64,000 bases of DNA from a virus. A model generated the notes under the pieces. It was not told where the DNA came from. It saw only the letters and a program-made list of their open reading frames with translations, and made no database searches. Location of the stretch: the IMG/VR virus record IMGVR_UViG_3300045391_006990, positions 32,001-96,000 of that record. The stretch is one strand, 5' to 3'. A program made the translations under genes and the position numbers. This document shows positions 9,219 through 63,140 of the stretch, piece by piece; position 1 is the stretch's first letter; each line of letters starts with the position of its first letter.

Positions 9219-9988
9219 GACGCCTCCACAGTAGTCGAATTCTTAGTAGCCTTCTTGGATGGATACACGCACCTGAATCCTTGCGGTAGCGCGTAAACGC
9301 TGGCGTCGAAACCGTCAGCCATCTTCTGAATGAGGTCGCAGCGCGTCTTCGCTTCGTCGTCGATGAAGTACTTCCCGGTCTTGGCCAGGAAGGGGCAGCG
9401 CCCTTGACGGTAGGCGGTGAACCACACACCGACGGGCGCGTCGGTACCGTCCTTCTGCCTGCACTCGTTCTTCCAATGAGCAAGCACGCCGTACGAGAGC
9501 CGGATGTTCGTCGCCGGATCGCGCAGCTGCTTCTCAGTCAGCTTGTCCTTCTTACGGCCCTCGGCGGTAGCCCAGTCGCGCCCGGGGAAGAGCTCCTGGA
9601 TTTCCTTCCACGGTGGCAGGTGCTTGGTGTTGCCTTTGTTCAGCTGCTGCGGGCCAACAGCGCGGCACTCCATGTGCCAAACCGGTGTGTAGCCAGCCGG
9701 CCACTGCAGGCGCGGCACATGCAAGTACGCATGTTCGTTGTGGCAGTCACCATCGGCGGGCGGTAGCCGAAAGCGTGACTCACGGTAGGTCACCGCGGAC
9801 AGAATGAGGACATCCGTCTGGCTGTCGTAGAGCAGACCGGGGGCGGCGTTGCCGTAGTGCAGCTCGACGGTCGAAGCGATGTCGTCGTTGAATTTTTTCT
9901 TCAGCTCTTCGTGACGCGCAACGTTCGGCGCCTCGCGCAAGATGAAGCCCAAGATGGTAGCGGTCAGTACTTGTAGAAAAGTCATCAC
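9206..9988 (-). CDS. Lytic transglycosylase (SLT-like) with N-terminal hydrophobic anchor
   Basis: AVTYRESRF (catalytic Glu), AVGPQQL (GLMQ-like), LRDPATNI and AY motifs. Confidence 0.65.
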   Translation of the reverse strand: MMTFLQVLTATILGFILREAPNVARHEELKKKFNDDIASTVELHYGNAAPGLLYDSQTDVLILSAVTYRESRFRLPPADGDCHNEHAYLHVPRLQWPAGYTPVWHMECRAVGPQQLNKGNTKHLPPWKEIQELFPGRDWATAEGRKKDKLTEKQLRDPATNIRLSYGVLAHWKNECRQKDGTDAPVGVWFTAYRQGRCPFLAKTGKYFIDDEAKTRCDLIQKMADGFDASVYALPQGFRCVYPSKKATKNSTTVEASWSQ

Positions 9989-12946: not shown

Positions 12947-13228
12947 TTAGTTAGCTTCCTTCTCGGGTACCGGAGTATGCGGAACCGACCCCGGTATGTG
13001 AATGATGGTGCGCTGTTGGATTACGACGAGGGCGTTGTCTGGTGTGCGCGAGAGAAAACTCGATACTATGAAACCCTCCTTAGTGTTTTTGTTCAGAATC
13101 TCTTCGAGCTCGGCGGCGAACTTCTTTGAGTCGTCGCTCACGACCGCGTTCACACGCCATTCGATCTCAGCTTGGTGCATAACCGTTCCCTGCGGGATGT
13201 CTTTTTCCATGTGGCCTTTCATGAGCAT
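12947..13228 (-). CDS. Hypothetical protein
   Basis: Tightly packed ORF in the operon. Confidence 0.6.
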   Translation of the reverse strand: MLMKGHMEKDIPQGTVMHQAEIEWRVNAVVSDDSKKFAAELEEILNKNTKEGFIVSSFLSRTPDNALVVIQQRTIIHIPGSVPHTPVPEKEAN

Positions 13229-13665
13229 CAGGTCTCGTCCTCGATGGGGTCCGGTGTAGCGCTAGTTGCTAACACATCTTCCATTTTGCTGCTCAAAACA
13301 TCCCAATACCAGCGCACAGCCATTCGTACCTGACCTGCACTGAAGCTGATCTCGTAGCGCTTCTTCTCCGCCACGTCTTGCACGTAGGGGTTTAGCCGAA
13401 GTTGGCTTTCGATGACCTCTCCCAGCACTCTGATGAATCTAACGGACTTAGCAACTACAGCCTCCGCCTTCTTGGCACGAGAGTCAGCTTCATCCGCACG
13501 CGTGCGCTCTGCGGCAAGGCCTTCCTCGTAATCCTTCTCACGAGAGGCAGCCGCCCCCGGCGTAGTAATACTACTCACATAGGCGTTGAACTCAGTGTTC
13601 GCCTGCGTGTTGCTGCGAAGCACCTGCAACAAGGCTGGGTAGTTGCTCAGCTGAGGCTTCGCCAT
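13228..13665 (-). CDS. Hypothetical protein
   Basis: Tightly packed ORF with a coiled-coil segment. Confidence 0.6.
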   Translation of the reverse strand: MAKPQLSNYPALLQVLRSNTQANTEFNAYVSSITTPGAAASREKDYEEGLAAERTRADEADSRAKKAEAVVAKSVRFIRVLGEVIESQLRLNPYVQDVAEKKRYEISFSAGQVRMAVRWYWDVLSSKMEDVLATSATPDPIEDET

Positions 13666-48512: not shown

Positions 48513-51500
48513 TCAAAGGTTTTCGCCTGGGCTCGCCACATCGGGAGCCATGGGAATGTCAGGTTGCATGGGTGAATCAGCGTCGTCGCTCGAGAACTCG
48601 AAGTCCTTGTCGTCAGGCTGCGCGCCGATGAGCTTCTGCCCGGCGGTGTCGCGCCTGTTGAACTTCCTGATGGGCAGGTCTTCGCGTGCAAGGTCACGCA
48701 TGCCGCTCATCAGCGTGCCCGAGTAACTCACGCCGTCTACGTTGAGATTGAAGAAAGTGCTGAACTGACCTTCGAGCAAAAGGTCGATGGCCCTGTCAGC
48801 TCCCTTTTGCCTGAAAGTCGACAGCATTACGTCCACAGGCTCGACCGCGGGCGCTTCATACAGGTCGAACACGGCGCCGAGCTCGGTGAGCGAAGCGGCC
48901 ATATCCTCGAGCAGGTTCGTTGCATCGTTGATCATGGAAGGCGTGGGGTTGGCGTTGGTCACGATGGGGTTGAGCGCGCGCGCCAGGTTTCTGAAGAAGA
49001 GCTCTTGCTGCGGCGACTGACCGAGCCAGGTGGTTGAACCGTCCTTGAGCTCGGTGTAGTTGGCCACCTGCGCGATGCGGATGCGCCCGAAGGGATTGGG
49101 CACGCCGAAGTCGAAGGTGAGGCTGAACGTCGAGGCGACAGCTGCGCTCAGCTCGAGCACCTGCAACGTGCTGTCGATGGAGACGACCTCTTGCTCGACG
49201 TCCACCACGTTGTAGCTGCCCACATAGAACTGCACGAGGTCGCCCACCGTCACGCCCGCTGGGAACGTGTCGAAGCGGATGAACTTCGTGAAGCCCTTGA
49301 TGGGCACACCCACGTCGATAGGGTCCAGGAAGTAATCGGCGCCATGGCTCGTGCCTGCGTTGTCGACCGTGATCGCAGAAACCAGCGTGGTGTCACGCGA
49401 GACGAAGCTCACGTCTTCGGAGCCGAACTCCACGTTGAACCCAATGCTCTTATTCCCGTCTTTGAAGACGGGTAGCGAGCTCTCGATGACGAGCTCGAAC
49501 GAGGCCGTGGTCTTCACCAACTGGTCCTCACCAATGTAGTAGTGTCCTTGGTTGGGCCCGTCGCTGATGATCAGCACGTCGCCAAAGCCGAAAGTCACGT
49601 CTGGTCCCACCTCGATGGAGATGGCGCCGTCGGTGACAGGCACGGGGAATGTAACGCCCAACACACCAGACGCGATGGTGTTGATGCTGCCTTCTACTCC
49701 GATGTCAGTTGGAGTAAGGCTTGAGCGAATCACCACGCGATCTCCCAGCTGCACAGAATCAGGAACGGCGACCGCTAGTGCGATGTTGGTTCCGCCCGTA
49801 CCTAGAAGGCCGTCGCAGACCAGCTTACTCAGCACCACGCGCGTCGGGTCCGTAGGCTCGGAGCGCGCGCTACCGACGTACTCGAAGGGGTGAAACACCA
49901 CCTTGGCGCTCAAGGCAGCAGTCGAGCCCGTGATGTTGTCGACCACGGCCTGGGCTGATACTGGGCGGCTCCGCACCTCGATGCCAGGGAAGAAGCCCAG
50001 GATGGCGTGGGTCAGGTCCTGCACCCCGTCGGTGCGTGGCAGCCGAATAGCCCTCCGCTGGACCACGCTGCCGAGTTCGTCCGTGTCCACGAGCTGCAGG
50101 GCGCGCGCGGCAGGCCCCGTTTCGATGGAGTCGTCGCTCGCAGGCACAACAGGCGCCACGCCGGCGGTATCCACGTACTGGCCCAGAGGGTCGACCGCCG
50201 TGATGCCCCACGTCGTACCAGCGTTGGTCCCTGCCACCACATCGAGGTCGTCGCCCACTACAACGCCCAGCGCGTTCAGATCGCCGGCCAAGATGGTGAA
50301 GCGTGCGTTGTTGCCACCCAGGCTCGTCGTGGTGACGGGCCCGCTGTAGCGCAAGGGCACGAAGCGCTTCTGCATACGTAGCGATGAAGCACCCAGGCCT
50401 GCGTTCACCTCGGTCACGATCTGCTGGGCAGAACGTGTACCGATGGTGAGGGGAATGTCGAAAGTTGCGCCGCCCGTGTCGAGCTGCCCGAACACGATGC
50501 GCATGGCGTTGCTGTCTGCCGTGATGGCGAAGGGCTCCTGCAGCGTGCCCAAGAGCTCAGCCACGTACGACAGGGGCAACGGGAAGTCGAAGGGCGTCCC
50601 GCCGTCCAAGGTGAAGCGGATGAGCTGATTGGCAGCCAGGATGGGGTAGGGGCCCGAGCTCGAGCTCTCACGCACCGCTGGCACGGCCAGGTGCTGGGTG
50701 TCGGCGTAGGCCGTGGCCAAGCCCGAGGTGGTGATGAACTCGCTCGGAGCCGTGGCCGCCCCGTACTTCGTGACCAGCGGGCGCTGGGTGAGCAGGTCCA
50801 GCGTGACCGCGCGCAGGTTGTCGAGGCGGCTGTTCTCGTCCAGCGCCGCCAGGTCGTTGTAGTGGCTGTCGAGCACGTCGCGCGCGCGGCTGATGACACC
50901 CTGGGCAGCGATGCGGGGCAGGTTCAAGCTCGCAAAGTCGTCGATGGCGCCCGCCAGCAGCTTCACCCGCCTGATGAGCTCGTTCTGCTGGTCCACCAGC
51001 TGGCGCACGAGCCCTGGGATCTTCCCCCGGGCCCCACTCGGCGTGTCCACGATGGTAGCCGAGCCGTCGGCACCCGTCTTCCTGATATTCGAGCCCGTGG
51101 CACCGAGGAAGCCGTCGAGGTTCTGGACGTAGCGTCGGTACGCTGGGACCTTGCTGATGTCGCTGAAGCCTTGGTCACGGGATGAAACAGCGGCTTCGAG
51201 CTCCTCCAGGGCGCTGCGTGCGTTGGCAAGCAGGCTGATGTCAGTGATAGGGGTCGTGAGCCTATCGGTAGCCTCCACTGCGTCGATGAGGCTTGCGATG
51301 GTTTGAGCCTGTGAATCAAGGGCATCCTGCAGCCTCTTCACCCCGAGCTTGAGCACATAGAAGGGGGCGTTGAAGTACAGGATGAAGCACCCTGCGGCGG
51401 CCTCTTGGATGTCGCTGAAGGATACGTCAATCTTCCTTTCCCCGAGAATACCCGTTGGATGTCGAACACTTGACCGTACAATCTTCTCGACGGCGTCCTG

Positions 51501-51527
51501 CACTTCTTGGTCGGTGTAGTTGCTCAT
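48513..51527 (-). CDS. Putative virion structural protein, 1004 aa
   Basis: Helical termini around a beta-rich core. Shares GVxVGD..I..GxNxG repeats with the baseplate protein. Confidence 0.6.
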   Translation of the reverse strand: MSNYTDQEVQDAVEKIVRSSVRHPTGILGERKIDVSFSDIQEAAAGCFILYFNAPFYVLKLGVKRLQDALDSQAQTIASLIDAVEATDRLTTPITDISLLANARSALEELEAAVSSRDQGFSDISKVPAYRRYVQNLDGFLGATGSNIRKTGADGSATIVDTPSGARGKIPGLVRQLVDQQNELIRRVKLLAGAIDDFASLNLPRIAAQGVISRARDVLDSHYNDLAALDENSRLDNLRAVTLDLLTQRPLVTKYGAATAPSEFITTSGLATAYADTQHLAVPAVRESSSSGPYPILAANQLIRFTLDGGTPFDFPLPLSYVAELLGTLQEPFAITADSNAMRIVFGQLDTGGATFDIPLTIGTRSAQQIVTEVNAGLGASSLRMQKRFVPLRYSGPVTTTSLGGNNARFTILAGDLNALGVVVGDDLDVVAGTNAGTTWGITAVDPLGQYVDTAGVAPVVPASDDSIETGPAARALQLVDTDELGSVVQRRAIRLPRTDGVQDLTHAILGFFPGIEVRSRPVSAQAVVDNITGSTAALSAKVVFHPFEYVGSARSEPTDPTRVVLSKLVCDGLLGTGGTNIALAVAVPDSVQLGDRVVIRSSLTPTDIGVEGSINTIASGVLGVTFPVPVTDGAISIEVGPDVTFGFGDVLIISDGPNQGHYYIGEDQLVKTTASFELVIESSLPVFKDGNKSIGFNVEFGSEDVSFVSRDTTLVSAITVDNAGTSHGADYFLDPIDVGVPIKGFTKFIRFDTFPAGVTVGDLVQFYVGSYNVVDVEQEVVSIDSTLQVLELSAAVASTFSLTFDFGVPNPFGRIRIAQVANYTELKDGSTTWLGQSPQQELFFRNLARALNPIVTNANPTPSMINDATNLLEDMAASLTELGAVFDLYEAPAVEPVDVMLSTFRQKGADRAIDLLLEGQFSTFFNLNVDGVSYSGTLMSGMRDLAREDLPIRKFNRRDTAGQKLIGAQPDDKDFEFSSDDADSPMQPDIPMAPDVASPGENL

Positions 51528-51799
51528 TTGCTGGGGTCTTTCTCGAGGCTGAAGCGTGCGGTAGGCACCTTGTACTTACCAAAAACGTCTGGGTGAAATT
51601 GGTTGGGCTGCAACCCACTTTGCAGGGCATTCTCCATGTCCTGCGCCATCTCGTCCTCGTAGGCTTTGGTCTTGATGCAGCGGACGCAGCTGACCAGGGT
51701 GTGGTCGGTGGTGCTTCGCATGAACCCGCGGTCTCGAGTCGCACCACAGACCGCGGCATTGTCCCCGTGTTTGAACCTCCAATGCATCACGTGGCTCAT
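51524..51799 (-). CDS. Zn-finger + AxxMExAL motif protein
   Basis: H..CG..VSCVRC followed by DEMAQDMENAL. Confidence 0.7.
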   Translation of the reverse strand: MSHVMHWRFKHGDNAAVCGATRDRGFMRSTTDHTLVSCVRCIKTKAYEDEMAQDMENALQSGLQPNQFHPDVFGKYKVPTARFSLEKDPSK

Positions 51800-52390
51800 G
51801 TAGTGGGGTCTTTCTCAGGCATATCGATGCCGCTGAAGTATCTACGGATGGCCACGTCCAGGTCGAGGAAGGGGCCGTGATTTTCGCCCTGTTCGCCCAG
51901 CTCTTCCCACCAGACGATGATGGCGTACTCGGTGGTCTTCAGGAGGTGGCCACGCCACTCGAGGCGCCAGCCATGGGCGCGGGTGAGGTGAAGCTGCTGG
52001 TTGCGGGCGCCGATGCACCATGTAGCGGCTGCCTCGACATCGGGGAAGAGCAGGACGGTGTGCTCGACGCGTACGGCGCGCCAGGCTTTGGGCTCACCGG
52101 TCTCGGTCAGGGTGAAGACAGTTGTGCCGGGCACCAGGTCGATGATCTCCCAGTAATTGCCACGTGTGGGTTGGATGATGGCGCTCATGTACTTGCCTTT
52201 GCTGCTGCGCGTAGGAGCTCCACTTCACGGGGCGTGAAGGGGCCGTTGCCCGAGTGTTTGATGCAGGTTTCTACGGCCGTGACCAGGCTTTCCTCTTCGC
52301 CATGGACCAGGAGCTGCTTGGCCACATTGAGCTCGTGCTGTAGGAGGGAGGGGAGGGGTTGGGCAGGTGCTGTTCGCGGGCGCCGAAAAG

Positions 52391-52717
52391 TCATGTAGGG
52401 GGTGCTTTCCCTGAGCCTCGGCACCTAGCGCAGACGCCGTTGAACTGGGAGGGTATCGGACTTCTTGAGCCTGAGCCATGGCAGCTTTCGCACAGCTTGG
52501 GCTGGGTCAGGATGCGCATGACTTCTTGGTAGGTTTTGTCCTGCACAGCGAGGACGGGGTGCTCATGCTGGTCGAGGATGTAGACGATGTCGAACAGCTG
52601 CTTGGTGGTGAAGGGGGCCTTGGCTTGGAGCACGGTGGCCAGGGTGGTGAGGAAGTCGGGATGAACGCTGTTGGCTGGCGCCGAAGGTTCATTTTCTGGG
52701 TGGAGCGGGGTGCTCAT
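52391..52717 (-). CDS. Hypothetical protein with DnaJ-type CxxCxGxG repeats
   Basis: CESCHGSG...CARCRGSG. Confidence 0.55.
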   Translation of the reverse strand: MSTPLHPENEPSAPANSVHPDFLTTLATVLQAKAPFTTKQLFDIVYILDQHEHPVLAVQDKTYQEVMRILTQPKLCESCHGSGSRSPIPSQFNGVCARCRGSGKAPPT

Positions 52718-52913
52718 GTATTGGTGACTTTCGTTGGGGTCTGAGGCAGAGAGAACACGAGGGAGCCAGGCTGGATGTGCTTACCGTCGACGGCGAGCTT
52801 AGCCGAAGAAGTGAGCTCGGTGCGCAGCCTGTGTTGGAGGATGAGCCAGCTGTGGCGCTCGGTGGCGTGATTGGGGAATTTGTCGAGGGTGAAGGCAGGT
52901 AGGCGGTGCGGGA

Positions 52914-53186
52914 TCATGTTGGTCGAGCCTTCCTTGGCAGGTTCACCACTTTTTTGAGCGCGAGGGCTAGGCTGTTGTTTCGGAAAGTAGATGGCATCCT
53001 AAAATCTGTCAGCTTGGGCGCATCAGGGGTCAGAGCATCTTCCATCTTCTGAGCGATTCGGTCCTCGTGCGTGATGTTGGGTGTGAAGGGTTTCCCGTCG
53101 TAGGTGCGGCACACACCTTCGTGGCTGTGTTCCAAGTAGCAGCGTTTTTTGTAATTTGGCAGCACGAGCCTGTTCATACAACGCAT
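52914..53186 (-). CDS. C-C-H-C finger + AxxMExAL motif protein
   Basis: C...CYLEHSHEGVC followed by DRIAQKMEDAL. Confidence 0.65.
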   Translation of the reverse strand: MRCMNRLVLPNYKKRCYLEHSHEGVCRTYDGKPFTPNITHEDRIAQKMEDALTPDAPKLTDFRMPSTFRNNSLALALKKVVNLPRKARPT

Positions 53187-53190
53187 GGCT

Positions 53191-53427
53191 TCAACCTAGT
53201 TTTGGCAGCAGCGCGATGCACGCAGGGCACGAGACGTTCTCGTCGTCGAAGGTGTAGAGCGGGGTCTTGTCGGAGAGGGGCGTGCCCTTCGACCAGTCAG
53301 CTCGGTACACGCCTTCAGGCAAGCCCTCTGGCTGCGCGTAGACGTAGTACTCCTTGTTCTGACAGAGGATGGTTACGTAGGGCTGCGAGGAGCTGTGGCA
53401 GGCGTGAACGACTTGCTCGGTGTTCAT
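53191..53427 (-). CDS. Zn-finger protein of the same family, lacking the motif
   Basis: VH...ILC...VSCPAC, then ends. Confidence 0.55.
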   Translation of the reverse strand: MNTEQVVHACHSSSQPYVTILCQNKEYYVYAQPEGLPEGVYRADWSKGTPLSDKTPLYTFDDENVSCPACIALLPKLG

Positions 53428-53633
53428 GTGGTTGCTGCTTTCTGTAGTGCATGTTCCATGATTTCAGCGCGCTCGTCTCGGTACCGAGCAGTGCGCATGC
53501 AGCTCTTGCACGTCACCCAGTCGGCAAGCGAGGTCCACTGCACACGGCCTTCAGGGTCTTTGGTATTGCATACCTGCATGCGCTTACCGCAAGCTGTGGT
53601 GCGGTTCATGCCAAGGAAGAGGTGGACAGACAT
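53424..53633 (-). CDS. Zn-finger + AxxMExAL motif protein
   Basis: H..TACG..VTCKSC followed by DERAEIMEHAL. Confidence 0.7.
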   Translation of the reverse strand: MSVHLFLGMNRTTACGKRMQVCNTKDPEGRVQWTSLADWVTCKSCMRTARYRDERAEIMEHALQKAATT

Positions 53634-53908
53634 AGCTTCACGATCTTTTCGGTCAGCTCGTCGGTAAAGGCCCTGAAGCTGGCGACGGTACTGGGCGTGG
53701 TGAGCGACTCTTCCATCCGCTGGGCTTGGCACTCATCTGAGATCAGGCAGGCTTCGCAGTCCACGATGTCCAAGCTGCTAGAGAGGCGCGCGTCGTCGGG
53801 CAATTCACGTACCAGCTTGCCGCAGCCTGTACGAAACGGCATGTGCTGCTTGGGCGTGGGGAGCCAGTAATGAATCACGATGAGCTGGTCGTTTTCGTCG
53901 ACGTTCAT
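53606..53908 (-). CDS. Zn-finger + AxxMExAL motif protein
   Basis: HY..TGCG..VDCEAC followed by ECQAQRMEESL. Confidence 0.7.
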   Translation of the reverse strand: MNVDENDQLIVIHYWLPTPKQHMPFRTGCGKLVRELPDDARLSSSLDIVDCEACLISDECQAQRMEESLTTPSTVASFRAFTDELTEKIVKLCLSTSSLA

Positions 53909-54369
53909 GTGGTGCCTATCAGTAGCTGCCGTTGTGCGGATGGATTCCACTTCATGTGCTGCCCGGGCGGGAGGGTGAACTGCAGGATGATGAAGCCGTC
54001 AGCGCGCTTGACCATGTACTTGCGGTTCGCAAAGGACTCGTTGTACACGGTGAACTCTTCGATGCGCTCGCCAGCCGCCCACACGCGGTACACGCTTCCC
54101 GTCTCATCGACCAGCGTGGCAGCAGGGGCTTGGAGCGCTTCCTCCATCGCCTGTGCCTTACACTCGTCGGACCTGAGGCAGGCGGGGCAGTCCACTTCCT
54201 TGAGCTTGCTGGTGAGCGAAGCGGGCTGCCGTAAGTCGTAGAAGCCAAGGCCGCAGGCTGTGTGCACGGGCCCACGCCTTTCGACGTAGTAGTGGTGCGC
54301 GGTAGGGAGCACACGAGTAGTGAATGAGCGGGCTGCCTCCGCAATCTTTTCTTTTAGCTCAGCGCTCAT
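53905..54369 (-). CDS. Zn-finger + AxxMExAL motif protein with a C-terminal domain
   Basis: HY..TACG..VDCPAC followed by ECKAQAMEEAL. Confidence 0.7.
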   Translation of the reverse strand: MSAELKEKIAEAARSFTTRVLPTAHHYYVERRGPVHTACGLGFYDLRQPASLTSKLKEVDCPACLRSDECKAQAMEEALQAPAATLVDETGSVYRVWAAGERIEEFTVYNESFANRKYMVKRADGFIILQFTLPPGQHMKWNPSAQRQLLIGTT

Positions 54370-54595
54370 ACATGTCCGTACCGAACATCGACACGACGCC
54401 CTCGGTTGCTTGCCGGATGTTCGATTTGATGAGGGCACGCTCCATGCCCGTGGCCAGGTACTCGTCCGAGCACAGGCAGCCAGGGCACGTTACTTCCTTG
54501 AGGCTGTTGGTGCCGCATACGCCGGGTTCAGTGCCCAGGGGTTGGCCGCAGGCTGGGATGTAGTTGGCACCGCGGGTGACATAGCAGACGGGCAT
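54359..54595 (-). CDS. Zn-finger + AxxMExAL motif protein
   Basis: CY..PACG..VTCPGC followed by EYLATGMERAL; GGAGG SD. Confidence 0.7.
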   Translation of the reverse strand: MPVCYVTRGANYIPACGQPLGTEPGVCGTNSLKEVTCPGCLCSDEYLATGMERALIKSNIRQATEGVVSMFGTDMYER

Positions 54596-54612
54596 GCGTA
54601 CCTCCTGCAGCA

Positions 54613-54930
54613 TTACGTAATCTCCAGCTTCTTCAGGTACTCGGCAGAGACCATGAGCTTGCTGAATTCCTTCTCGAGAAGTTCATTTGGATACAGTACA
54701 TTCATGAAATCACCTGCCTCCACACCACGGTTGACGAAGTCAGGCTCGCGCAGCGAATCCTCCATGGATTGAGCCAAGGCATCGAGGTACTGGGCGGACT
54801 CGAGGCAGCTCTCGCAGTTGATGCGCTCGACCCAGCGCGTGGCGTACATATCGTGGGTGATGCGCACGCCACATCCCGTACGCTTGCTGTCACCGTTCTT
54901 GGCGAAGTGGGAGGTGCCCTCGAACTTCAT
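54613..54930 (-). CDS. Zn-finger + AxxMExAL motif protein
   Basis: HF..TGCG..INCESC followed by DALAQSMEDSL. Confidence 0.7.
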   Translation of the reverse strand: MKFEGTSHFAKNGDSKRTGCGVRITHDMYATRWVERINCESCLESAQYLDALAQSMEDSLREPDFVNRGVEAGDFMNVLYPNELLEKEFSKLMVSAEYLKKLEIT

Positions 54931-55283
54931 GGACCACCACCTTCCGCTGTGATCGCCAGCTTGCGTACGACACCATCCGAGCTCATCACGCAGATTTCGT
55001 CTGTAGTCGTGTCCATCCACAGAAAGCAACCGCTGACAGGTGCAGTGGTTGGGGCGCCCGGCAGCCAGGTATTCGAGCTCGCGGGCAGCGGGATGGTAGG
55101 CGCGCTCTTGCCGGAGATGGTGAACACATCCGTGCGCAGCGCATCTTCCATGGACTGCGCGACGCCTTCGAGGCACGTGACACAATCCACCTCGTAGGGT
55201 GCGCTGCTGCAGAAGTCAGCCTTCACCTGACTCAAGCCGCAGAAGGTGCGCGCTCTACCTGGAGGGACGTAGCAAGTAATCAT
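54927..55283 (-). CDS. Zn-finger + AxxMExAL motif protein with a tail-fibre-tip-like C-terminus
   Basis: CY..TFCG..VDCVTC followed by EGVAQSMEDAL. Confidence 0.7.
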   Translation of the reverse strand: MITCYVPPGRARTFCGLSQVKADFCSSAPYEVDCVTCLEGVAQSMEDALRTDVFTISGKSAPTIPLPASSNTWLPGAPTTAPVSGCFLWMDTTTDEICVMSSDGVVRKLAITAEGGGP

Positions 55284-55289
55284 GGGCTC

Positions 55290-55673
55290 CTAGTAGGGTT
55301 GGAAGTCGCGCTTACGCTTGGGTGCACTCTTCAGCGTCTTGAAGTAGGTCTCGAGCGTGAGTCGATACGCATCGAGTTGTTCGAGCCCTTCGAAGTACCA
55401 CCAGTAGGCCTTGTACTCGTAGAGCACCCAGTAGGGCGGGTTCTTGTGCTCGTAGCTGACCATGGTCTGCGTCTTGGTGCGCATGCCATCAGGAAATGGG
55501 GTGAACGAGAGCACGGCAATGGACATGGCCTTGGTACGCCACACGCGGTACTGCTGGTTGGCCAGAACGGCGCCGTGCGTGCCGCGTGTGGTGTAAGGCT
55601 TGCCTTTGCCGAAGGTCAGCGCGTCCTCCATGGCTTGCGCGATTTCATCTTCGGTCAGCTCTTCCATGGTCAA
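55290..55673 (-). CDS. AxxMExAL motif protein
   Basis: N-terminal EDEIAQAMEDAL. Confidence 0.7.
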   Translation of the reverse strand: MTMEELTEDEIAQAMEDALTFGKGKPYTTRGTHGAVLANQQYRVWRTKAMSIAVLSFTPFPDGMRTKTQTMVSYEHKNPPYWVLYEYKAYWWYFEGLEQLDAYRLTLETYFKTLKSAPKRKRDFQPY

Positions 55674-55918
55674 TCCCAGTAGTAGAGTACAAGCTCGCTG
55701 GTGTGGCGTCCTTCGTGACCGAATGGGAGCTCGCAGAAGACGGTCTGCCCTTTGTTCGTGAAGTGCATGTGCTTGCAGCGCAAGTCACGGGCTGGAGTGC
55801 CTCCGAGTGCCTGCTCGAGGCGGTCTAGGGCTAGCTCTTCGTTGATCTTACGAGCCCTGCGCTCCTCGAGCTTCTTGCGCCTCCGCGCCTCGCGCTTGAA
55901 GCTGCGCGCGGTAGCCAT
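55670..55918 (-). CDS. Basic N-terminus + LDRLExAL variant motif + C-C-H-H finger
   Basis: ELALDRLEQAL...C...CELPFGHEGRH. Confidence 0.65.
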   Translation of the reverse strand: MATARSFKREARRRKKLEERRARKINEELALDRLEQALGGTPARDLRCKHMHFTNKGQTVFCELPFGHEGRHTSELVLYYWD

Positions 55919-56263
55919 CTACACCCCGAGCTTGAGCCTGGCTTCTTTGATGGACTCGAGCGAGATCCACGCAGGCTTACGGTACCGTGCAGTGGCAATG
56001 TCATTGCAGAACTTATGCCAAGCCTCGGTCAAGATCTTGTGCTCCGTACGTTGCTCCAAGCTGAGCCACACGGTGCCGCGGCCTTCGGCTTGCAGCGTCT
56101 CGAGGTCGAAGCGCCCTCTTGGTGCGATGAAGCGCGAGTTCTCGTAGTTGTACTCCACCCACTTGCGCCCAATCTTGGTGATCACGTACTCGGTAGGCTT
56201 GCCACGGTCGAAGTCGTGCTCGACGAAGACATGCTGCCCTACCTTCAGGTTGTGCTTGTTCAT
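55919..56263 (-). CDS. Hypothetical beta-barrel-like phage protein
   Basis: LKVGQ...ITKIGRKW; ATGA overlap. Confidence 0.6.
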   Translation of the reverse strand: MNKHNLKVGQHVFVEHDFDRGKPTEYVITKIGRKWVEYNYENSRFIAPRGRFDLETLQAEGRGTVWLSLEQRTEHKILTEAWHKFCNDIATARYRKPAWISLESIKEARLKLGV

Positions 56264-56637
56264 GATGCCCACTCGAAGGCGATGCCTTCACGCTCACACA
56301 TTTCAGAGAACATTCGGCGCACGGCGATACATTGCCGGTCACCAGGTTTGAGTGCCTTGCGGCACACGTCGGGGCGCTTTTCGTAGATGGAGCAACTCAC
56401 TTGGCTACCGATGGAGCCACGCAGCGAGACGCACCTGCAGTCCTCACAGCCTTTGAGCGGGCCCGTCTTGTTGACCGTTGGCCGTGTACGTATCTCGCTG
56501 CGAATGACGTGCAGCTTCACGTAACGTTTGCCCAGAAGCTCTTCATCTTTGGGCGTGAGGTTGACGTAGGTGTCCTCCCAGGTAAGGGAGGTACAACAGA
56601 TGCCGCACTTGCGGCAGTCAGGCTTGCGCATGATCAC
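56260..56637 (-). CDS. YkgJ-family CxxCxxCC cysteine-cluster protein
   Basis: DCRKCGICC...CVSL.G.IG...CSIYEKRPDVCR...C. Confidence 0.8.
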   Translation of the reverse strand: MIMRKPDCRKCGICCTSLTWEDTYVNLTPKDEELLGKRYVKLHVIRSEIRTRPTVNKTGPLKGCEDCRCVSLRGSIGSQVSCSIYEKRPDVCRKALKPGDRQCIAVRRMFSEMCEREGIAFEWAS

Positions 56638-57093
56638 TCCAAGTGGTGAGGCCCCACGTGCTTGTAGCGCCTGAGTTCCTGCGGGGTAGCGCCAGTGAGG
56701 CGGCGCTTGGTCGCACCGGCGCTGCGCTCGCTGCGTGCCTTGTCACGGCGCCATTCTTCAGCCTCGGCTTCGGTAGCCACGTACTGCGTGGAGCCCCACG
56801 AAGGGATGTTGATTGTCCACACGGCCACTTCATGAGGGTCGTGCTGCCTTTCAGGATCGAGGTCTGCGTCTTCCTTGACCAAACCTTCGGCGATTTCGAT
56901 GAGAGCTACCTCGCCGTCGGCAAAGGGCTCCACAGTGACGCTGGTCGAGCTGAACTTGGGCGCGCGCCAGCGCGGACAGTCTGCACCGTCCACACGGCTC
57001 ATGTACGGATGAAAGACAGGGAAGGGCGGCGTGATGCCGTCATGCTTGCGCGCCCAGTTGAGCAGGATGCGCACAGCACGGATGAGCTTCTGT

Positions 57094-57333
57094 TCATGGG
57101 GGTTCATACGAGGGATCACTCCAGGAAATGACGGCCAGCGATGGTGTGACGCACATGTGATCAGTGCCTCGGTGGCCGCGCTTGAGGGTGCAGCGGTGCC
57201 CTTCGGATACCGACTGGCACTGGGCGGTGGCGATGGCCGCTTCGAGTCTGTCGAGCGGCGCTTCGTACTTCAGGTATTGCTGACGAGCGTGGCGCTTCTT
57301 GCGAAGCTCACGCTTCTGTTTTCGGTTTGCCAG
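57094..57333 (-). CDS. Paralog of 55670..55918 with a probable CTG start (not in the ORF track), 79 aa
   Basis: GGAGG 9 nt before the CTG. ANRKQKRELRKKRH...EAPLDRLEAAI...C...CTLKRGHRG..H. No in-frame ATG/GTG/TTG back to the TAG at 57430. Confidence 0.6.
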   Translation of the reverse strand: MANRKQKRELRKKRHARQQYLKYEAPLDRLEAAIATAQCQSVSEGHRCTLKRGHRGTDHMCVTPSLAVISWSDPSYEPP

Positions 57334-57698
57334 TTGAGATGACCTCCAACTCCTGTTCTCCGGCGAACTTGTGCTGAAGCAGCGTTGGGTTGTGGTCAGG
57401 TACGTGCTGAAGATCTTCAGGCAGGTCTTCTATAGCTAGGGTAGGCTTCCACACGAAGATGAGCGTATCGGCCTGTGCGTTGTAGTGGGTCTCTACGAGT
57501 TCGCAAAGGTACAGCTTGTCCCTGTTGTCCCTCACCACCGGAGACTCGATCTTGTACCCAATCTTCTTCGGGTCGGGGTAGGCGTAGTTGCCGTCCTTGC
57601 TGTGCGCACACGACCAGTCGCCGAGTGCCATCTGCACTTCGGCTATTGAGCGGGGCAGCGTCGTAACGATGTAGTTCATTCTCCAAGACATGGGATCC

Positions 57699-57950
57699 TC
57701 ACACGGGTTTGGTTTCGCTCACGATGACGGTGGGTGGGAAAAGGTCGAGCAGGTTGTACTTCTCAGCCAAGGTGTAGCTGTTTGCCTTTCGAAACTTCTG
57801 CTCTTCGCGAGCTCGTTTAGCTCGGATGTCACGCATGGCGTCCTTCAAGCTGAGCGGACCACGCAACGATTCTTCCATGCTCTGCGCCGCACGCGCTTCA
57901 TCAACTACTTGCTGTAGTTCTACTGGGAGCTGTGGTTGCTTAGCAGTCAT
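57699..57950 (-). CDS. AxxMExAL motif protein
   Basis: ARAAQSMEESL. Confidence 0.65.
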   Translation of the reverse strand: MTAKQPQLPVELQQVVDEARAAQSMEESLRGPLSLKDAMRDIRAKRAREEQKFRKANSYTLAEKYNLLDLFPPTVIVSETKPV

Positions 57951-58359
57951 CGATAGGGGCGAACAAGCTGGCGCGAGGCTCTGGTCTGAAGCGGTATTTG
58001 GGCTCTAACCCAATCGACTCCCGCAGCCTATTGAATTCCATGATGAGGTCGTCGAGTGCTTTCTCGGAGTCGAAGTTGGGGTCATCCAAGAAGCGGTAGA
58101 TGGGGAACGGCAGGAACAGCTGCAGCCACGGTCGCGTCTCGTTGAGGCGCAGGTACAGCGCATCGTCGTACATGTTCATGATGCGCGCGATGTCGGCTGC
58201 GTTGAAGAAGAAATAGGTTGGGCGTTGCCAATCACCCAGGTACTGCGCTGTCCACGTACGAGCCTGTGCCTGCCCTTTATCCCACGCATAGAAGGGCACC
58301 AGCACCTTCTCCATGCGGTCTGCCAGCAGATCCTCGAATGGAAAGATGAGCTGGTACAT
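57940..58359 (-). CDS. AxxMExAL motif protein
   Basis: DLLADRMEKVL. Confidence 0.65.
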   Translation of the reverse strand: MYQLIFPFEDLLADRMEKVLVPFYAWDKGQAQARTWTAQYLGDWQRPTYFFFNAADIARIMNMYDDALYLRLNETRPWLQLFLPFPIYRFLDDPNFDSEKALDDLIMEFNRLRESIGLEPKYRFRPEPRASLFAPIDDC

Positions 58360-58688
58360 CAGTACGGCCTCAGCTTTTTGGGAGCAACTTCACGCCGACT
58401 ACGCGCGTCGTCCTCGCGCTCGAGACCAGGGAAGAACCACAAGTCTAGCTCGACTTCCATGTAGTCCCAGCCGTTTGTCTTTTCTCGGCGTACCTCAACC
58501 TCCACCATGGCCGTGTTCGGGTAACGAAAGCGAACCTCTACAGTCGACCCGAACAGACCCTTGTGCTTGCTCTGGACTTTGTACTCGCTCCAGTCTGTCC
58601 AGCCACCGAGCAGCGCCAGCTCCATGCGCTCGGCCATCAAGTCTTCAACGTCTTCGATGATGGCAGCGAGGTTGTCGAGCTTCTTCAA
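58359..58688 (-). CDS. AxxMExAL motif protein
   Basis: DLMAERMELAL. Confidence 0.65.
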   Translation of the reverse strand: MKKLDNLAAIIEDVEDLMAERMELALLGGWTDWSEYKVQSKHKGLFGSTVEVRFRYPNTAMVEVEVRREKTNGWDYMEVELDLWFFPGLEREDDARSRREVAPKKLRPY

Positions 58689-59173
58689 AATGCACTCATC
58701 CTGATCTTGGTTGGTTTGCCATTTGCCAGCCTGCCCTCGTACGCCTCACGCACCAGCTTTTCCTTCTCGATGCCGGGGAAGAACCATTGGTGGCGTCGTG
58801 GGCTGTACAGGCGTGAGTACTCGTCGTTGCCGGTGCCCCAAATGAGCGGGTCCTGTTCAGGCGGTTTCTTCTTGGGCACGTCGACCTTGAAGAAGCGCAC
58901 CTCGATGCAAGGATTACCTGTGGCGTAGGTTCGAAAGCGCACCGCACACTTCTGCCCAACGCGGGCTAGTCTCTCCTCTCCAAAATCCACGTGGTGGTCT
59001 GAGCGCAGCGTGTACACGTGCCAACCGTTGGTGAAGAGCGATTCGGTGTGTGCCTCGGGCTTGATGATGCTGTCACGCACCATCTTGTGTAGGTAAGCCC
59101 TCAGCCTTTGGTTGTCCTTCTTCGTGACCGCCCAGCCTGGCGGGAGTCGCTTTGTCTTACGGCTTTGTGCCAC
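58685..59173 (-). CDS. Hypothetical protein; its C-terminal domain resembles that of 58359..58688
   Basis: Both share VRFR....N..[IV]EV...WFFPG[IL]E[KR]E. Confidence 0.6.
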   Translation of the reverse strand: MAQSRKTKRLPPGWAVTKKDNQRLRAYLHKMVRDSIIKPEAHTESLFTNGWHVYTLRSDHHVDFGEERLARVGQKCAVRFRTYATGNPCIEVRFFKVDVPKKKPPEQDPLIWGTGNDEYSRLYSPRRHQWFFPGIEKEKLVREAYEGRLANGKPTKIRMSAF

Positions 59174-59454
59174 CTCTTCATACCCTCCTTGACGCGTACT
59201 GATCTTTCCTCGAGCGTGGCGATCAGCCTGTCGGCAGTAGCTGCGGACACGCTGTCGAGCATAAGTCGACCTCCCGAAGTGGAAGCAGCCGTAGCTGTGC
59301 CAGTGCGTAGGCTCACGTCATCCCCAATAGAACGTTGCGATGGTGGAGGCTCGGTGACGGTCAGCGCATCCTCCATAGCCTGCGCTATAGCAGCCTTCTT
59401 GTGGTACCAAGGTTGGTACTTGCGCACGTGGAGCTTCTTCTTGCGCTTACTCAA
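59101..59454 (-). CDS. Basic N-terminus + AxxMExAL motif protein
   Basis: AAIAQAMEDAL. Confidence 0.6.
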   Translation of the reverse strand: MSKRKKKLHVRKYQPWYHKKAAIAQAMEDALTVTEPPPSQRSIGDDVSLRTGTATAASTSGGRLMLDSVSAATADRLIATLEERSVRVKEGMKRWHKAVRQSDSRQAGRSRRRTTKG

Positions 59455-59863
59455 TTGAGATCGAAACCTTTTTCAGCTCGATTATTGGGGTAATGCCAGC
59501 GGAGATGTGTAGGTGCTGCTTGAGCTCCGCTTCAAGCAGTACGCTACCGTCTAGGATTAGTTGAACCTTCGACAAGATCGCTGACCCCCCTATACACGCA
59601 GGGAAGCAGATGGGTCTTACGGTACTGAGAAGTCCGTGGGCGACAGCCCATTGATTCGTGTCACGCGCGAGGGAAACCCGCGCATAACCAGCGTAGGTCA
59701 CCTCATTCCCGTCAATATCCAGAAGGCTTGCTGTCATCCCTGTAGTAGGAGTCAGCGCAGCTTCCATGCGTGCGGCAGCTAAATCACACTCACGCTTTTG
59801 CTTAAGTAACGACTCAACCAACTTCCACTGGTGCTTGGCCCACCGAACCGAATTCCTCTTCAT
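59447..59863 (-). CDS. AxxMExAL motif fused to a phage tail-protein-like domain
   Basis: DLAAARMEAAL followed by NEVTYAGYARVSLAR...W...FPACIGGS...ISAGITP. Confidence 0.65.
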   Translation of the reverse strand: MKRNSVRWAKHQWKLVESLLKQKRECDLAAARMEAALTPTTGMTASLLDIDGNEVTYAGYARVSLARDTNQWAVAHGLLSTVRPICFPACIGGSAILSKVQLILDGSVLLEAELKQHLHISAGITPIIELKKVSISIE

Positions 59864-60453
59864 GGTCTGCGCAGCCGTCCTAGCCCGTAAGCCGGGCCTG
59901 TGCCATTGATCTTGCCTCCAATCAATTTAAGGGGAGGTCCGCCGTAGACTGCCGCGAATGATGCGATCTTTGCGGCGGCGCGCGCTACATCCGCGCTTAT
60001 GCCATCGGCAACCACCTTCTCGAACACCTGCTCGATGTCGTCCGGCAGCTCATCGCCGTAGCTGCTGAGCACCAAGGCCGTGTTTGCTTTGGATTCGCCA
60101 AACGCTTGCTCGAGCACGCGCCGCTCGAGCTCAGCGTAGTCCGTACGCGCCAATGGGTCGTCAACGATGACGAGCGTACCTGGACCTCCAAGCCGTTGTG
60201 GCGTCGGCAGGCCACGCGAAGCGTACCTGTGCTCCAAGGCCATATCTTGAAGCTGGGCGTAGAAGTCGTCGAGGCGTGGGATGTACTGCAAGTTCGGCTG
60301 TGATGAACCTCTGCGCCCAGTGATTGGGCCCAGAGTTTCGAGGTCGAACGCCACCGGATCGAAGCTGAGCGCCGCCTCCATTGCGTGTGCCTGCGCATCT
60401 TCGTACGCCTTGTTGCGCCGTTGATTGCGGGTAAGTCGCTTCTGCCTACGCAT
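59860..60453 (-). CDS. AxxMExAL motif fused to a patchwork of DNA polymerase A motif fragments
   Basis: DAQAHAMEAAL, VAFDLET, TGRRGSSQPNLQYIPR, DYAELERRVL and AKIASFAAVYG. Confidence 0.65.
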   Translation of the reverse strand: MRRQKRLTRNQRRNKAYEDAQAHAMEAALSFDPVAFDLETLGPITGRRGSSQPNLQYIPRLDDFYAQLQDMALEHRYASRGLPTPQRLGGPGTLVIVDDPLARTDYAELERRVLEQAFGESKANTALVLSSYGDELPDDIEQVFEKVVADGISADVARAAAKIASFAAVYGGPPLKLIGGKINGTGPAYGLGRLRRP

Positions 60454-60652
60454 TCTTCCTCCTAGCCTTCACCCGCTTGGCGTCTTCGAAGCAGGCACGA
60501 GCCTCGTCCTTGGATTTACCGGTGGCTCGCATCCAAATCTCCATCAGCGTGGACTCTCCGCTGAGTGCTTCTTCCATGTCCCGCGCTTGCTCATCAACCG
60601 AGGCGGCTCTTTGGTCCCTTGTGCTTGGGTCGGACGACAGGGGTTGTGTCAT
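60446..60652 (-). CDS. AxxMExAL motif protein
   Basis: DEQARDMEEAL; GAGG SD. Confidence 0.65.
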   Translation of the reverse strand: MTQPLSSDPSTRDQRAASVDEQARDMEEALSGESTLMEIWMRATGKSKDEARACFEDAKRVKARRKNA

Positions 60653-60955
60653 CGTTCACCTCACGTTCACCAAGAAAGGCCTTAGCACGCAGCACGGTCT
60701 CTTGCTCACCACGCGAGATCTTGGCTCCTAAGATGCTGGTGGATTCTGGCTGCAGCTCGATGATGTGTACCAGCGCCTTGATGAGACTGGGGGCTTCATC
60801 GATACGCCAAGTCTCAGCCTTGTAGGCCTTGACCGCCCGAAGCAGCTCACGCGTGGCTTTGGTGTGGATGCGTGGTGCGCCATCTTCGAGCTCATCCGCC
60901 GCAGCTAGCGCTGCACGGATCACACGCTCCTTCAGCAGATTCACGGATGCAGTAC

Positions 60956-61906
60956 TCATTTTCTTAGCTCCAGGGATTTGACGACTTCAGGGCTCAGGTA
61001 GGGGTTGCGGGCGCAAGCATCTTCGATGAGCCGCTCCATGGCCACCTCGAACTTGCCCTTGTCGTCGCGCCCCTCGGCGCCAACAACGCAGCGGTCGCGC
61101 GGATGAAGCTGCAGCTTGGTCTCAATACGCAGGAGCCTGCCTTCCGGAAAGCTCATGGAGCTCGAGCCCGTCTGATACAGGCCTTGGTAGATGTACAGGT
61201 TACCGAGGTCTTTGTTGACGCGCTCGGCATTGGCCTTCGCTGCGGCTACATCCAAGGCGCGGGCGACGCTCGTCCTGCGACGGTCGTGCTCCCAGCGGCG
61301 CAGCACCTCAGCCGGCTTCAGCTCTTGGATCTCGATGACATACGAGGCGTAGTGCACGTCGTATTCGACCGTCTCCCAGCCAGTCTTACTCACCTCAGGC
61401 TCTGGGTGCGCCACACAGAAGGGTTGGCCAGGGGCGATGCCGTTTTGTAAGGCCCACTGCCGCCATGGCTCATGCCACTCGTGGTCGTACTCGAAGCAGT
61501 CCCCGTCGCCGTAGCTGATGCCCAGCGCCTCCCGCAAATCCAAGTCGCTCAGCCACCAAGGGAACCACTTGGGCTCCTGCGACGCGGGCCTCAGCTGATT
61601 GCCCATGGCGTCCCATTCACCCTCGTCGGTATCCCACGCAGGGCCTTGCCCGATCTTCACCGGATGCAGGTCGTAGAAGTCACCCCAATACAGGCGGTAC
61701 CATTCTCGTACCAATTTGATGCCATAGAGGTTTACGGCATCGCTGTCGTAGCGCACGGGTGGGATGAGTTTGCGCAGCTTCTTGAGCGTGCGACGCGTCT
61801 TGGTTGTAGGCACCAACGCTGCTGGAGGCACGGGCTCGCTAGGCATGCCATCCCACCACAACTCTGCTTCACTCAAGCTTTGGCTTCTCCTTTCTTGCTG
61901 GCACAC
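60956..61906 (-). CDS. Hypothetical Trp-rich protein
   Basis: Long ORF in the operon. Start uncertain. Confidence 0.6.
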   Translation of the reverse strand: MCQQERRSQSLSEAELWWDGMPSEPVPPAALVPTTKTRRTLKKLRKLIPPVRYDSDAVNLYGIKLVREWYRLYWGDFYDLHPVKIGQGPAWDTDEGEWDAMGNQLRPASQEPKWFPWWLSDLDLREALGISYGDGDCFEYDHEWHEPWRQWALQNGIAPGQPFCVAHPEPEVSKTGWETVEYDVHYASYVIEIQELKPAEVLRRWEHDRRRTSVARALDVAAAKANAERVNKDLGNLYIYQGLYQTGSSSMSFPEGRLLRIETKLQLHPRDRCVVGAEGRDDKGKFEVAMERLIEDACARNPYLSPEVVKSLELRK

Positions 61907-62747
61907 GGAAGGTCACGCCCTTGATGAACGTGGGGTCGTTGGCATCGTTGGCGAACTCGATGTCCTCGGTCGAGTCTTTGCCCACGCGCGTTGTGGTCTT
62001 GGTGAAGATGCCACAGCGCCCGCACTCCCAACTCTTCTTGTGAATGAACGGGATGTCGTCGCTGAACAGGGCTTCGAGCTCAGCCTCAGTCATTGGCTGC
62101 GTGAAGTCCTTGATCACCTGCGTCTGCTCTTCACTGTCCTTGCTTTCGCTCCAGCCGTTACAGCGAGGGCAGTACATGCCTTCAGCCTTGAACGTACCAG
62201 CGATCTGCGCCTCGAACTGACTGAGGTCGGTCATGTCGTAGCGCCGTACGATTTCAGCCTTGGGCATCCTGCGTATTTGCTCGGCAGTGGTAACGAAGAT
62301 GAGCTTGGCGCGCAGGGAGGCGTAACGCACCTCGTGCTCGTTGACCAAGAAGTCGACGGTCTCACCAGCCCTTTCCGAGGCCCAGGCGCAGGCGGCATCG
62401 ATAGCGCGCTCGAGGTGCTCGTTGGCCACGGCGGTGGCGTCGAAGTCTTCGAGCTCGTCATCAGTAGGCGCATGCCCTACCGCTTGCTCGACGAGCCAAC
62501 GTGGGGCGTCGGCGAAGCCCATGAACCTAGGGCTGCTCAGAAAGCGCACTGCCCTCACGTACGACTTGCGCAAGAGCTTCGTGTACGAGTCGTCGTCCTC
62601 ACCACCCTTGGGCCTGGTGCCGATGCAGAGCGGAAAGCGCGAGCAGCCAAAGAAGCTGCCTTTGGCGCCGTGCCGCTCCATCATGGGCACGCCGCATTCA
62701 GGGCAGCGCACGTGCGGAAGCAGCACGCGCTGCTTGAACTTACCCAT
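61869..62747 (-). CDS. Protein with a topoisomerase-type C4 zinc ribbon
   Basis: CPECGVPMMERHGAKGSFFGCSRFPLC; GGAGGAG SD. Confidence 0.75.
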   Translation of the reverse strand: MGKFKQRVLLPHVRCPECGVPMMERHGAKGSFFGCSRFPLCIGTRPKGGEDDDSYTKLLRKSYVRAVRFLSSPRFMGFADAPRWLVEQAVGHAPTDDELEDFDATAVANEHLERAIDAACAWASERAGETVDFLVNEHEVRYASLRAKLIFVTTAEQIRRMPKAEIVRRYDMTDLSQFEAQIAGTFKAEGMYCPRCNGWSESKDSEEQTQVIKDFTQPMTEAELEALFSDDIPFIHKKSWECGRCGIFTKTTTRVGKDSTEDIEFANDANDPTFIKGVTFRVPARKEKPKLE

Positions 62748-62756
62748 CTCTCCTCC

Positions 62757-63140
62757 CTAGCAATCTTCGTTGACGAGCACACCGCACTCGTCGCAATGGC
62801 GGTCGAGCGCTTCCTTGGTGTTACTCCAGAGCGTCATCATGTAGCCACTCAAGTAGCTGAGCCGCGGGTAGTTGGTAGCCACTGGCTCGTTCTTGAGCGC
62901 GCTTTCCATCGCCGGGGCGATTGTGTTGATGCGATGACAACGCCAACACAGGACGCAGCCGTGACTGAAGGTGTAGCCGATGATCCACGCTGCAGTAGAA
63001 AGCACTCCGCCCCATCGAATCTCTCCACAGCCAGTGCATTCCCAGCCACTGTGGTATCGAGGGGGCGGATGTACTTCCAGGCAAGGTGCCTGGGTCTTGC
63101 AATTCGGACAGCGCTGAACCGGCTTGACTTGCCGACTCAT
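62757..63140 (-). CDS. Multi-CxxC protein carrying the AxxMExAL motif
   Basis: CPNC..CTGC..CWRC, then NTIAPAMESAL, then CDEC. Confidence 0.65.
   Translation of the reverse strand: MSRQVKPVQRCPNCKTQAPCLEVHPPPRYHSGWECTGCGEIRWGGVLSTAAWIIGYTFSHGCVLCWRCHRINTIAPAMESALKNEPVATNYPRLSYLSGYMMTLWSNTKEALDRHCDECGVLVNEDC

Follow-up and report, generated by a model that had tools for sequence, protein, structure and literature searches.

The MIX motif of type VI effectors and the PRANC/F-box motif of poxvirus ankyrin proteins each place one motif on varied modules, and their partners are known. In phage T4, the capsid targeting sequence (CTS) is N-terminal and approximately 10 residues long, with gp21 cleavage after Glu in an L/I-x-E context. 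The T4 internal-protein locus encodes diverse proteins that have only a capsid targeting sequence in common (PMC3012670). In SPN3US, every cleavage identified in another protein takes off the N-terminal propeptide of a head protein (PMC10052503). Here, we analyzed a 64,000-nucleotide stretch of phage DNA (the window) and describe an array of small genes whose products share the short peptide A-x-x-M-E-x-x-L, designated the tag. The window corresponds to bases 32001–96000 of the 111,271-bp IMG/VR record IMGVR_UViG_3300045391_006990, designated G000, which is estimated to be 58% complete. Coordinates are window positions unless the record or a relative is named.

When all 111,271 bp of the record were translated in six frames, the regular expression A..ME..L returned 17 copies. 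Each belongs to a small minus-strand gene of its own and is read in its coding frame, between 51623 and 62918; together they are exactly the copies listed in an earlier account of the window made from its letters (hereafter, the sequence-only reading). That account had seen no strict copy in the first 51 kb, and a six-frame search of the entire record detected no strict tag outside the array. Residue shuffles within the 32 array proteins gave a mean of 0.06 copies and a maximum of 2 (5000 trials), against the 17 observed. A hidden Markov model built from the motif plus its flanks (tag HMM) scored the 17 copies at 18.5–27 bits, the next-best open reading frame (ORF) of G000 at 8.3 bits, and the best stretch of a tagless 188-kb relative, G002, at 7.7 bits; in the related phage G001, the tag was recovered. 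A word search of the literature found no description of the motif, and the earlier statement that it is undescribed agrees with all searches made. The tag is a real, non-random and undescribed feature.

The conservation is seen in the protein and not in the DNA. The first Ala of the tag uses all four Ala codons, and the Glu is encoded by GAA in 8 copies and by GAG in 9. The longest exact DNA word common to any two copies is 11 nt, and the mean pairwise nucleotide identity within the tag is 66%. Because synonymous codons vary while the residues stay constant, selection acts at the protein level, as the sequence-only reading had argued. An internal translation start at the ATG of the tag was considered and rejected: Shine–Dalgarno-like words occur only approximately 20 nt upstream, and the relative L140 has Ile or Val in place of the Met.

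Extended to its flanks, the motif reads [ED]-[DE]-x-[LIM]-A-[QAE]-x-M-E-x-A-L; Thr/Ser/Gln comes next, often with Pro/Gly. Previous counts of D/E three residues ahead of the first A (14 of the 17 copies) and of [S/A/G]-M-E (nine copies) were reproduced; D, K, I and R also occur before M. Tag segments of 12 residues have an average net charge of −2.6. Within the proteins, the tag begins between residues 10 and 75; in g08 and several relatives, it lies at the C-terminal end.

Structures of two array proteins were predicted using AlphaFold2. The g10 model, obtained from a 58-sequence alignment, has a pLDDT above 90 at residues 21–80 and a poorly predicted tail. It consists of three short strands and a helix (62–80) that runs from a CxxC pair and ends one residue past the Leu of the tag. 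In g22, which has no zinc finger (shallow alignment, mean pLDDT 63), a helix at residues 4–26 ends at the Leu of the tag and is followed by beta structure. Comparison of the g10 model with the PDB by Foldseek gave nothing at E ≤ 0.001, and a wide VIA-align fold search revealed no related solved fold (best Z, 2.1). The conserved hydrophobic and acidic positions fit an amphipathic helix, as had been proposed from the residue pattern, and both models place the tag at a helix end.

The array was modeled as 32 tightly packed genes, all on the minus strand and many overlapping at their stop and start codons. All-against-all BLAST and alignments identified eight of the 17 tagged genes (g01, g08–g13 and g31) as paralogs with a common finger module, in which a conserved His, Cys-Gly and CxxC are followed by the tag, the tag being the end of the finger's own helix. 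In g01 (51524–51799), the zinc finger and tag (51623–51646) precede a stop codon that overlaps the ATG of the gene for a 1004-aa protein (48513–51527, minus strand) directly downstream of the array. The tags of g08 (53424–53633), g09 (53606–53908), g10 (53905–54369), g11 (54359–54613), g12 (54613–54930) and g13 (54927–55283) are at 53445–53468, 53702–53725, 54133–54156, 54431–54454, 54751–54774 and 55137–55160, respectively. Six residues remain past the tag in g08, and the tag is followed by a tail in g09, by a beta-rich tail in g10 and by a fibre-like tail in g13. g31 (62757–63140) combines a Cys-rich N-terminal module with a tag at 62895–62918, and shares 65% identity with its G001 ortholog.

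The other nine tagged genes (g06, g14, g20–g22 and g24–g27) have no match to the finger genes beyond the tag itself. As a correction to the sequence-only reading, the genes of the array are not all unrelated to one another, eight of them being finger paralogs. g06 (52914–53186; tag, 53031–53054) is without a canonical finger. A Lys/Arg-rich stretch lies ahead of the tag in g24–g26, and the other fingerless genes mostly have a short stub or helix at this position. g14 (55290–55667) begins with an acidic 9-residue stub, followed by the tag (55617–55640) and a segment designated payload X, which is common to g14, g22 and g23. g20 (57699–57950) has the tag at 57864–57887, and g21 (57940–58359) has it behind a short stub at 58300–58323. 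The N-terminal helix of g22 (58359–58688) ends in the tag (58611–58634), after which payload X follows. Lys/Arg patches precede the tags of g24 (59101–59454; tag, 59362–59385) and g26 (59860–60453; tag, 60367–60390); g25 (59447–59863) has a basic helix, the tag at 59753–59776 and a small beta domain, and the tag of g27 (60446–60652) is at 60563–60586. Overall, the C-terminal parts of the tagged proteins fall into many unrelated groups, and no tagged protein had an above-threshold match in Pfam.

Two of these C-terminal parts gave weak resemblances. Past the tag, g26 (197 aa) has short collinear FDLET-like, TGR..SS.PNLQ.I and DY..LE.R.L stretches, which match motifs of family A polymerases, and its match to Pfam DNA_pol_A is under the cut-off (E = 0.0055). 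The genuine PolA of G000 is a separate protein of 706 aa (record 3436–5553), and no ortholog of g26 was found in G001. The g25 payload weakly matches the podophage GP4 fibre protein gp80 family (PF23140, E = 0.022); a protein of L140 with an Ile-variant tag has a beta domain that resembles the g25 payload by eye, with no match by BLAST.

The sequence-only reading had also named two paralogs with an LDRLE-type variant of the tag, and both exist. g15 (55670–55918) carries a Lys/Arg patch, the variant tag (55805–55837) and a Cys/His-rich tail. The second variant (57232–57264) belongs to a g15-like copy (57094–57300, minus strand) located between g18 and g19. Its frame lacks any ATG, GTG or TTG ahead of the motif; the copy may be a pseudogene, may begin at a non-canonical codon, or may be read through a frameshift from g19.

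Finger, tag and payload occur separately. Fingers without a tag are found in g07 (53191–53427), which ends 7 residues past the CxxC and is 68% identical to its G001 ortholog, in a second gene of G001, and in half of the wider finger family described below. Conversely, at least nine genes of G000 have the tag and no finger. P0023, composed of finger, tag and payload, and an L140 protein composed of a 12-residue stub, tag and payload share 53% identity over 104 residues from the tag onward. A DnaJ-type payload is untagged in g04, which matches the DnaJ-type zinc finger weakly and below threshold, and stands behind a finger and tag in P0027, P0033 and P0105. In L140, a g20-like tagged segment is fused to a finger-and-tag unit, giving one protein with two tags. 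g23 (58685–59173) keeps payload X with a decayed tag at 59033–59056. Finger and tag are therefore separable modules, which argues against the motif as the mere core of one paralog family. Descent from a single paralog family had been named as a possible refutation; it holds for the eight finger genes, and the fingerless genes, tagless fingers and payload swaps speak against it for the array as a whole. The proposed position of the tag, between interchangeable N-terminal modules and varied C-terminal segments, is borne out by the same tagless fingers, fingerless tags, payload swaps and decayed tag.

We compared the array with those of related phages. G001 (195,580 bp, with terminal repeats; TerL identity, 67%) has a syntenic array with 10 strict and 2 weaker tags at 48.2–60.3 kb. 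L140 is represented by 8.2 kb of a 61.8-kb metagenome contig with approximately eight tags, several with Ile or Val for Met, a conservative hydrophobic change. G002 (187,857 bp, 99% complete; TerL identity, 49%) has no tags; it keeps the large protein and a distant homolog of g17 and has no finger, and is a natural negative control for the tag. The large protein is directly downstream of the small-gene block in four related phages, with homologs of 1035 aa in G001, 1021 aa adjoining the array in L140, and 1025 aa in G002. No match to the 1004-aa protein was found in Pfam or PHROG. The four invariant residues of the tag are kept in the G001 orthologs of g11, g12, g14, g20, g21, g22, g24 and g31. 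Outside the tag, G000/G001 ortholog pairs show 34–45% identity in eight of nine aligned remainders, and g31 shows 73%. The tag decayed in g23 is intact in its G001 ortholog, and Phe replaces Met in one G001 homolog of g27.

Among GenBank phages, neither the array nor the 1004-aa protein nor a three-finger relative had a match at the DNA or protein level, and the G000 record had no near relative. The array sequence is present in four soil-metagenome sequencing runs, none of which is listed as an RNA dataset. An IMG/VR scan with the coding pattern of A-Q-x-M-E-[DE]-A-L returned at least 80 loci, every one single-copy, the short G001 locus included; G001 was the only known array holder among the matches listed. 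A five-copy cluster of A..[IM]E.AL in one frame of the distant relative G004 (L144, 100.1–102.1 kb) was set aside, as it lies in a tandem-repeat region of ambiguous frame and is probably a repeat artefact.

Some tag-like stretches were seen outside the arrays. A 145-aa protein near the terminase (13228–13665, minus strand) has ..ME..L close to its C-terminus, and a 213-aa probable coiled-coil protein beyond the window (record 9009–9650, plus strand) has AQ.MED.I. Both stretches are kept in G001 and score 4–9 bits, under the gap of the tag HMM. In G001, a 251-aa protein beside the terminase (L011:5628–6383) ends in a tag-like stretch followed by TP (13.9 bits); the alignment with its G000 ortholog covers 204 residues only.

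The finger is found well beyond this phage. We searched a finger-and-tag profile against 1.84 billion representative proteins (E ≤ 0.001), which gave 129 matches, each the representative of a cluster at 50% identity. A strict tag stands directly behind the finger in 57 of them; 64, mostly with two to eight tandem fingers, have no tag even with M/I/V/L allowed. The ten clusters inspected were all metagenomic and without an informative name, and an ESM Atlas search returned only "hypothetical protein" clusters. None of the finger proteins of the window matched any Pfam model at E ≤ 1, and one distant multi-finger relative scored 24.5 bits on zf-HC2 over a single stretch. This His-Cys3 finger is a new and fairly widespread family of 129 clusters, unannotated as far as they were inspected. 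Its finger-and-tag form is defined by H ... CG ... CxxC and then A-x-x-M-E-x-A-L at 4, 7 or 10–11 residues, an arrangement found in eight genes of the window. The CxxC-to-tag spacing takes these values in 72 of 73 finger-and-tag cases (M/I/V/L allowed). They are steps of about one helical turn, which weakly suggests that the face of the tag is fixed relative to the finger; only three or four ancestral forms may lie behind the pattern. From 1 to more than 90 residues follow the tag, and many members consist of finger and tag only, with 1–8 residues after. Whatever the function, a new zinc-finger family is added, and the array illustrates cleanly how modules are shuffled in nature around a linear motif that stays conserved.

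We tentatively regard the tag as a docking helix for one common putative partner, which is the most likely of the readings considered, short of being probable. The tag would form the last two turns of an acidic amphipathic α-helix, followed by helix-breaking Thr/Ser/Gln and a Pro/Gly-rich linker. Duplication and module shuffling would have joined it on the N-terminal side to a His-Cys3 finger, a Lys/Arg patch or a short acidic stub, and on the C-terminal side to at least a dozen unrelated segments, or to nothing. These small, probably intracellular phage proteins would engage the partner through the tag, and a groove of the partner would take the small residues (two Ala), the hydrophobic Met/Ile/Val and the Leu and pair with the invariant Glu. 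A docking helix is favored because Ala, Met (Ile/Val), Leu and Glu suit a helix inserting in a tight groove with one salt bridge. The mean charge of −2.6 makes self-association less likely than binding to a basic surface. We infer both that the tag binds and that all copies have one target. A bolder form, which we consider possible and somewhat doubtful, would make the tag an address label in a system not yet described: one hub, formed by a host machine or by an assembly or compartment of the phage, would read an acidic helix of approximately 14 residues, and new small effectors would be plugged in by fusion. This would explain the fast turnover of N-terminal modules and payloads around an invariant tag.

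Several points weigh against a docking helix. No partner was found among the candidates considered below. In eight of the 17 genes, the helix of the finger runs on into the tag, and the spacing of 4, 7 or 10–11 residues also fits a helix packing back on the finger or a composite surface. Since many family members have almost nothing past the tag, "tag plus cargo" is not general, and the term cargo used in the sequence-only reading was too strong. The evidence is all computational and comes from uncultivated phages. The scale is more modest than a "tag and cargo system" suggests, and the role is putative.

The main rival holds that the tag is a structural or oligomerization helix of a fast-evolving His-Cys3 family, that the fingerless genes are N-terminally eroded paralogs, and that there is no shared external partner. 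The eight clear finger paralogs among the 17 tagged genes, the unbroken helix from zinc knuckle to tag in the g10 model at pLDDT above 90, and the spacing quantized at about one helical turn are all in its favor, as is the likeness of the 14 residues up to and including the tag in finger and fingerless members. We nevertheless consider it unlikely. The 64 of 129 family representatives without a tag, mostly multi-finger, have a different helix in its place, so the finger needs no tag; fingerless tagged genes have no similarity to finger genes beyond the tag; g23 kept its payload after the loss of the tag; and a strongly acidic helix argues against self-association. A recombination linker, that is, a shared stretch maintained at the DNA level between gene modules, would account for module boundaries that coincide with the tag. 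It is very improbable, and largely refuted by the codon data: 66% nucleotide identity, a longest shared word of 11 nt and the use of all synonymous codons are combined with four invariant residues.

A further alternative, following the suggestion of a processing site in the sequence-only reading, is that the tag is a signal for capsid targeting, prohead-protease processing or both, and that the array proteins are packaged and ejected. Its attractions are the T4 internal proteins, a precedent for diverse proteins with only a targeting sequence in common (PMC3012670), the invariant Glu with S, A or G two residues earlier in nine of 17 copies, and the position of the array, always directly upstream of a 1004–1035-aa protein that belongs to no known family, was taken for a virion part in the sequence-only reading and overlaps the array by ATGA in G000. 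Against a cleavage site, the residue ahead of Met is variable, and L140 has Ile or Val at the Met position. Tags lie inside the protein or near its C-terminus, in some cases 1–5 residues from it and in many members followed by 1–8 residues, so that cleavage would free only 4–8 residues in several. Neither Peptidase_S77 (PF03420) nor S78 models matched in the complete G001, and Peptidase_S77 had no match in G000, although divergent proteases could escape these models; PHROGs and Pfam scans revealed no capsid protein or protease. Moreover, the attached modules are of intracellular types (zinc fingers), and the genes upstream of the array encode a sigma-like factor, ThyX and RNase HII. We therefore judge packaging and processing quite improbable, and the processing site in particular was not upheld.

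As a candidate partner for a docking helix, g17 (56260–56631), an untagged CxxCxxCC (PF03692) protein, was considered. Few genes of the phage are as conserved, even though g17 lies inside the fastest-evolving block: its identity between G000 and G001 is 82% (top decile; genome-wide median, 63%), it is 80% identical to the L140 protein, and it is present in all three arrays. Eleven metagenomic relatives show 73–87% identity. A single complex prediction of g17 with a 35-residue tag segment scored 0.01, which speaks neither for nor against binding. The idea is slightly lowered by G002, where a distant g17 homolog persists in the absence of tags. The ORFs common to G000 and G001 and absent from the tagless G002 number 35, too many to single out a hub, and the partner may be a host protein. 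If one helix does serve one partner, this partner could be found with a single peptide bait, a block of "hypothetical" genes would be explained at once, and the tag would be a portable protein-targeting tag for this phage group.

Other genes in and around the array are untagged. g16 (55919–56263) has a phage ProQ C-terminal-like domain and is kept in all three arrays, and g30 has a topoisomerase-type zinc ribbon. The genes upstream of the array also include one for an inorganic pyrophosphatase-like protein. The sigma-70-like factor (Sigma70_r3; G001 L014:10058–10819; G000 record 105466–106227, beyond the window) is 85% identical between the two phages. The G000 record also encodes a large terminase, tail-spike-like proteins and a family A DNA polymerase.

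Among known systems, the T4 CTS is the nearest analogy, being one short conserved peptide on a cluster of small, highly diverse phage proteins. In contrast to the CTS, the tag is internal or C-terminal and has another consensus, and no gp21-type protease was detected by the scans described above. The motifs of phiKZ gp175 and SPN3US gp245 likewise have an invariant Glu with a small residue two positions earlier, the latter in about half of the copies here; this small residue is not conserved in the tag, and its invariant Ala, Met and Leu are foreign to those motifs. The tag may also bear some likeness to the methylation-site helix of chemoreceptors. As in zf-HC3 (PF16827) and zf-HC2 (PF13490), the inferred ligands of the finger are His, Cys and CxxC, and a zf-HC3 cluster is a weak, feature-based neighbor; unlike zf-HC3, zf-HC2, the DksA/TraR C4 finger and Zn ribbons, the finger-and-tag proteins of the window match no family model. 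The motif, the finger and the phage group are described in no resource that we searched, whereas the design, a short motif on many modular proteins, is known elsewhere. The proteins that bear MIX and PRANC/F-box have no sequence relation to those of the array, which are far smaller, but they are alike in that a short element on many varied proteins reaches one machine.

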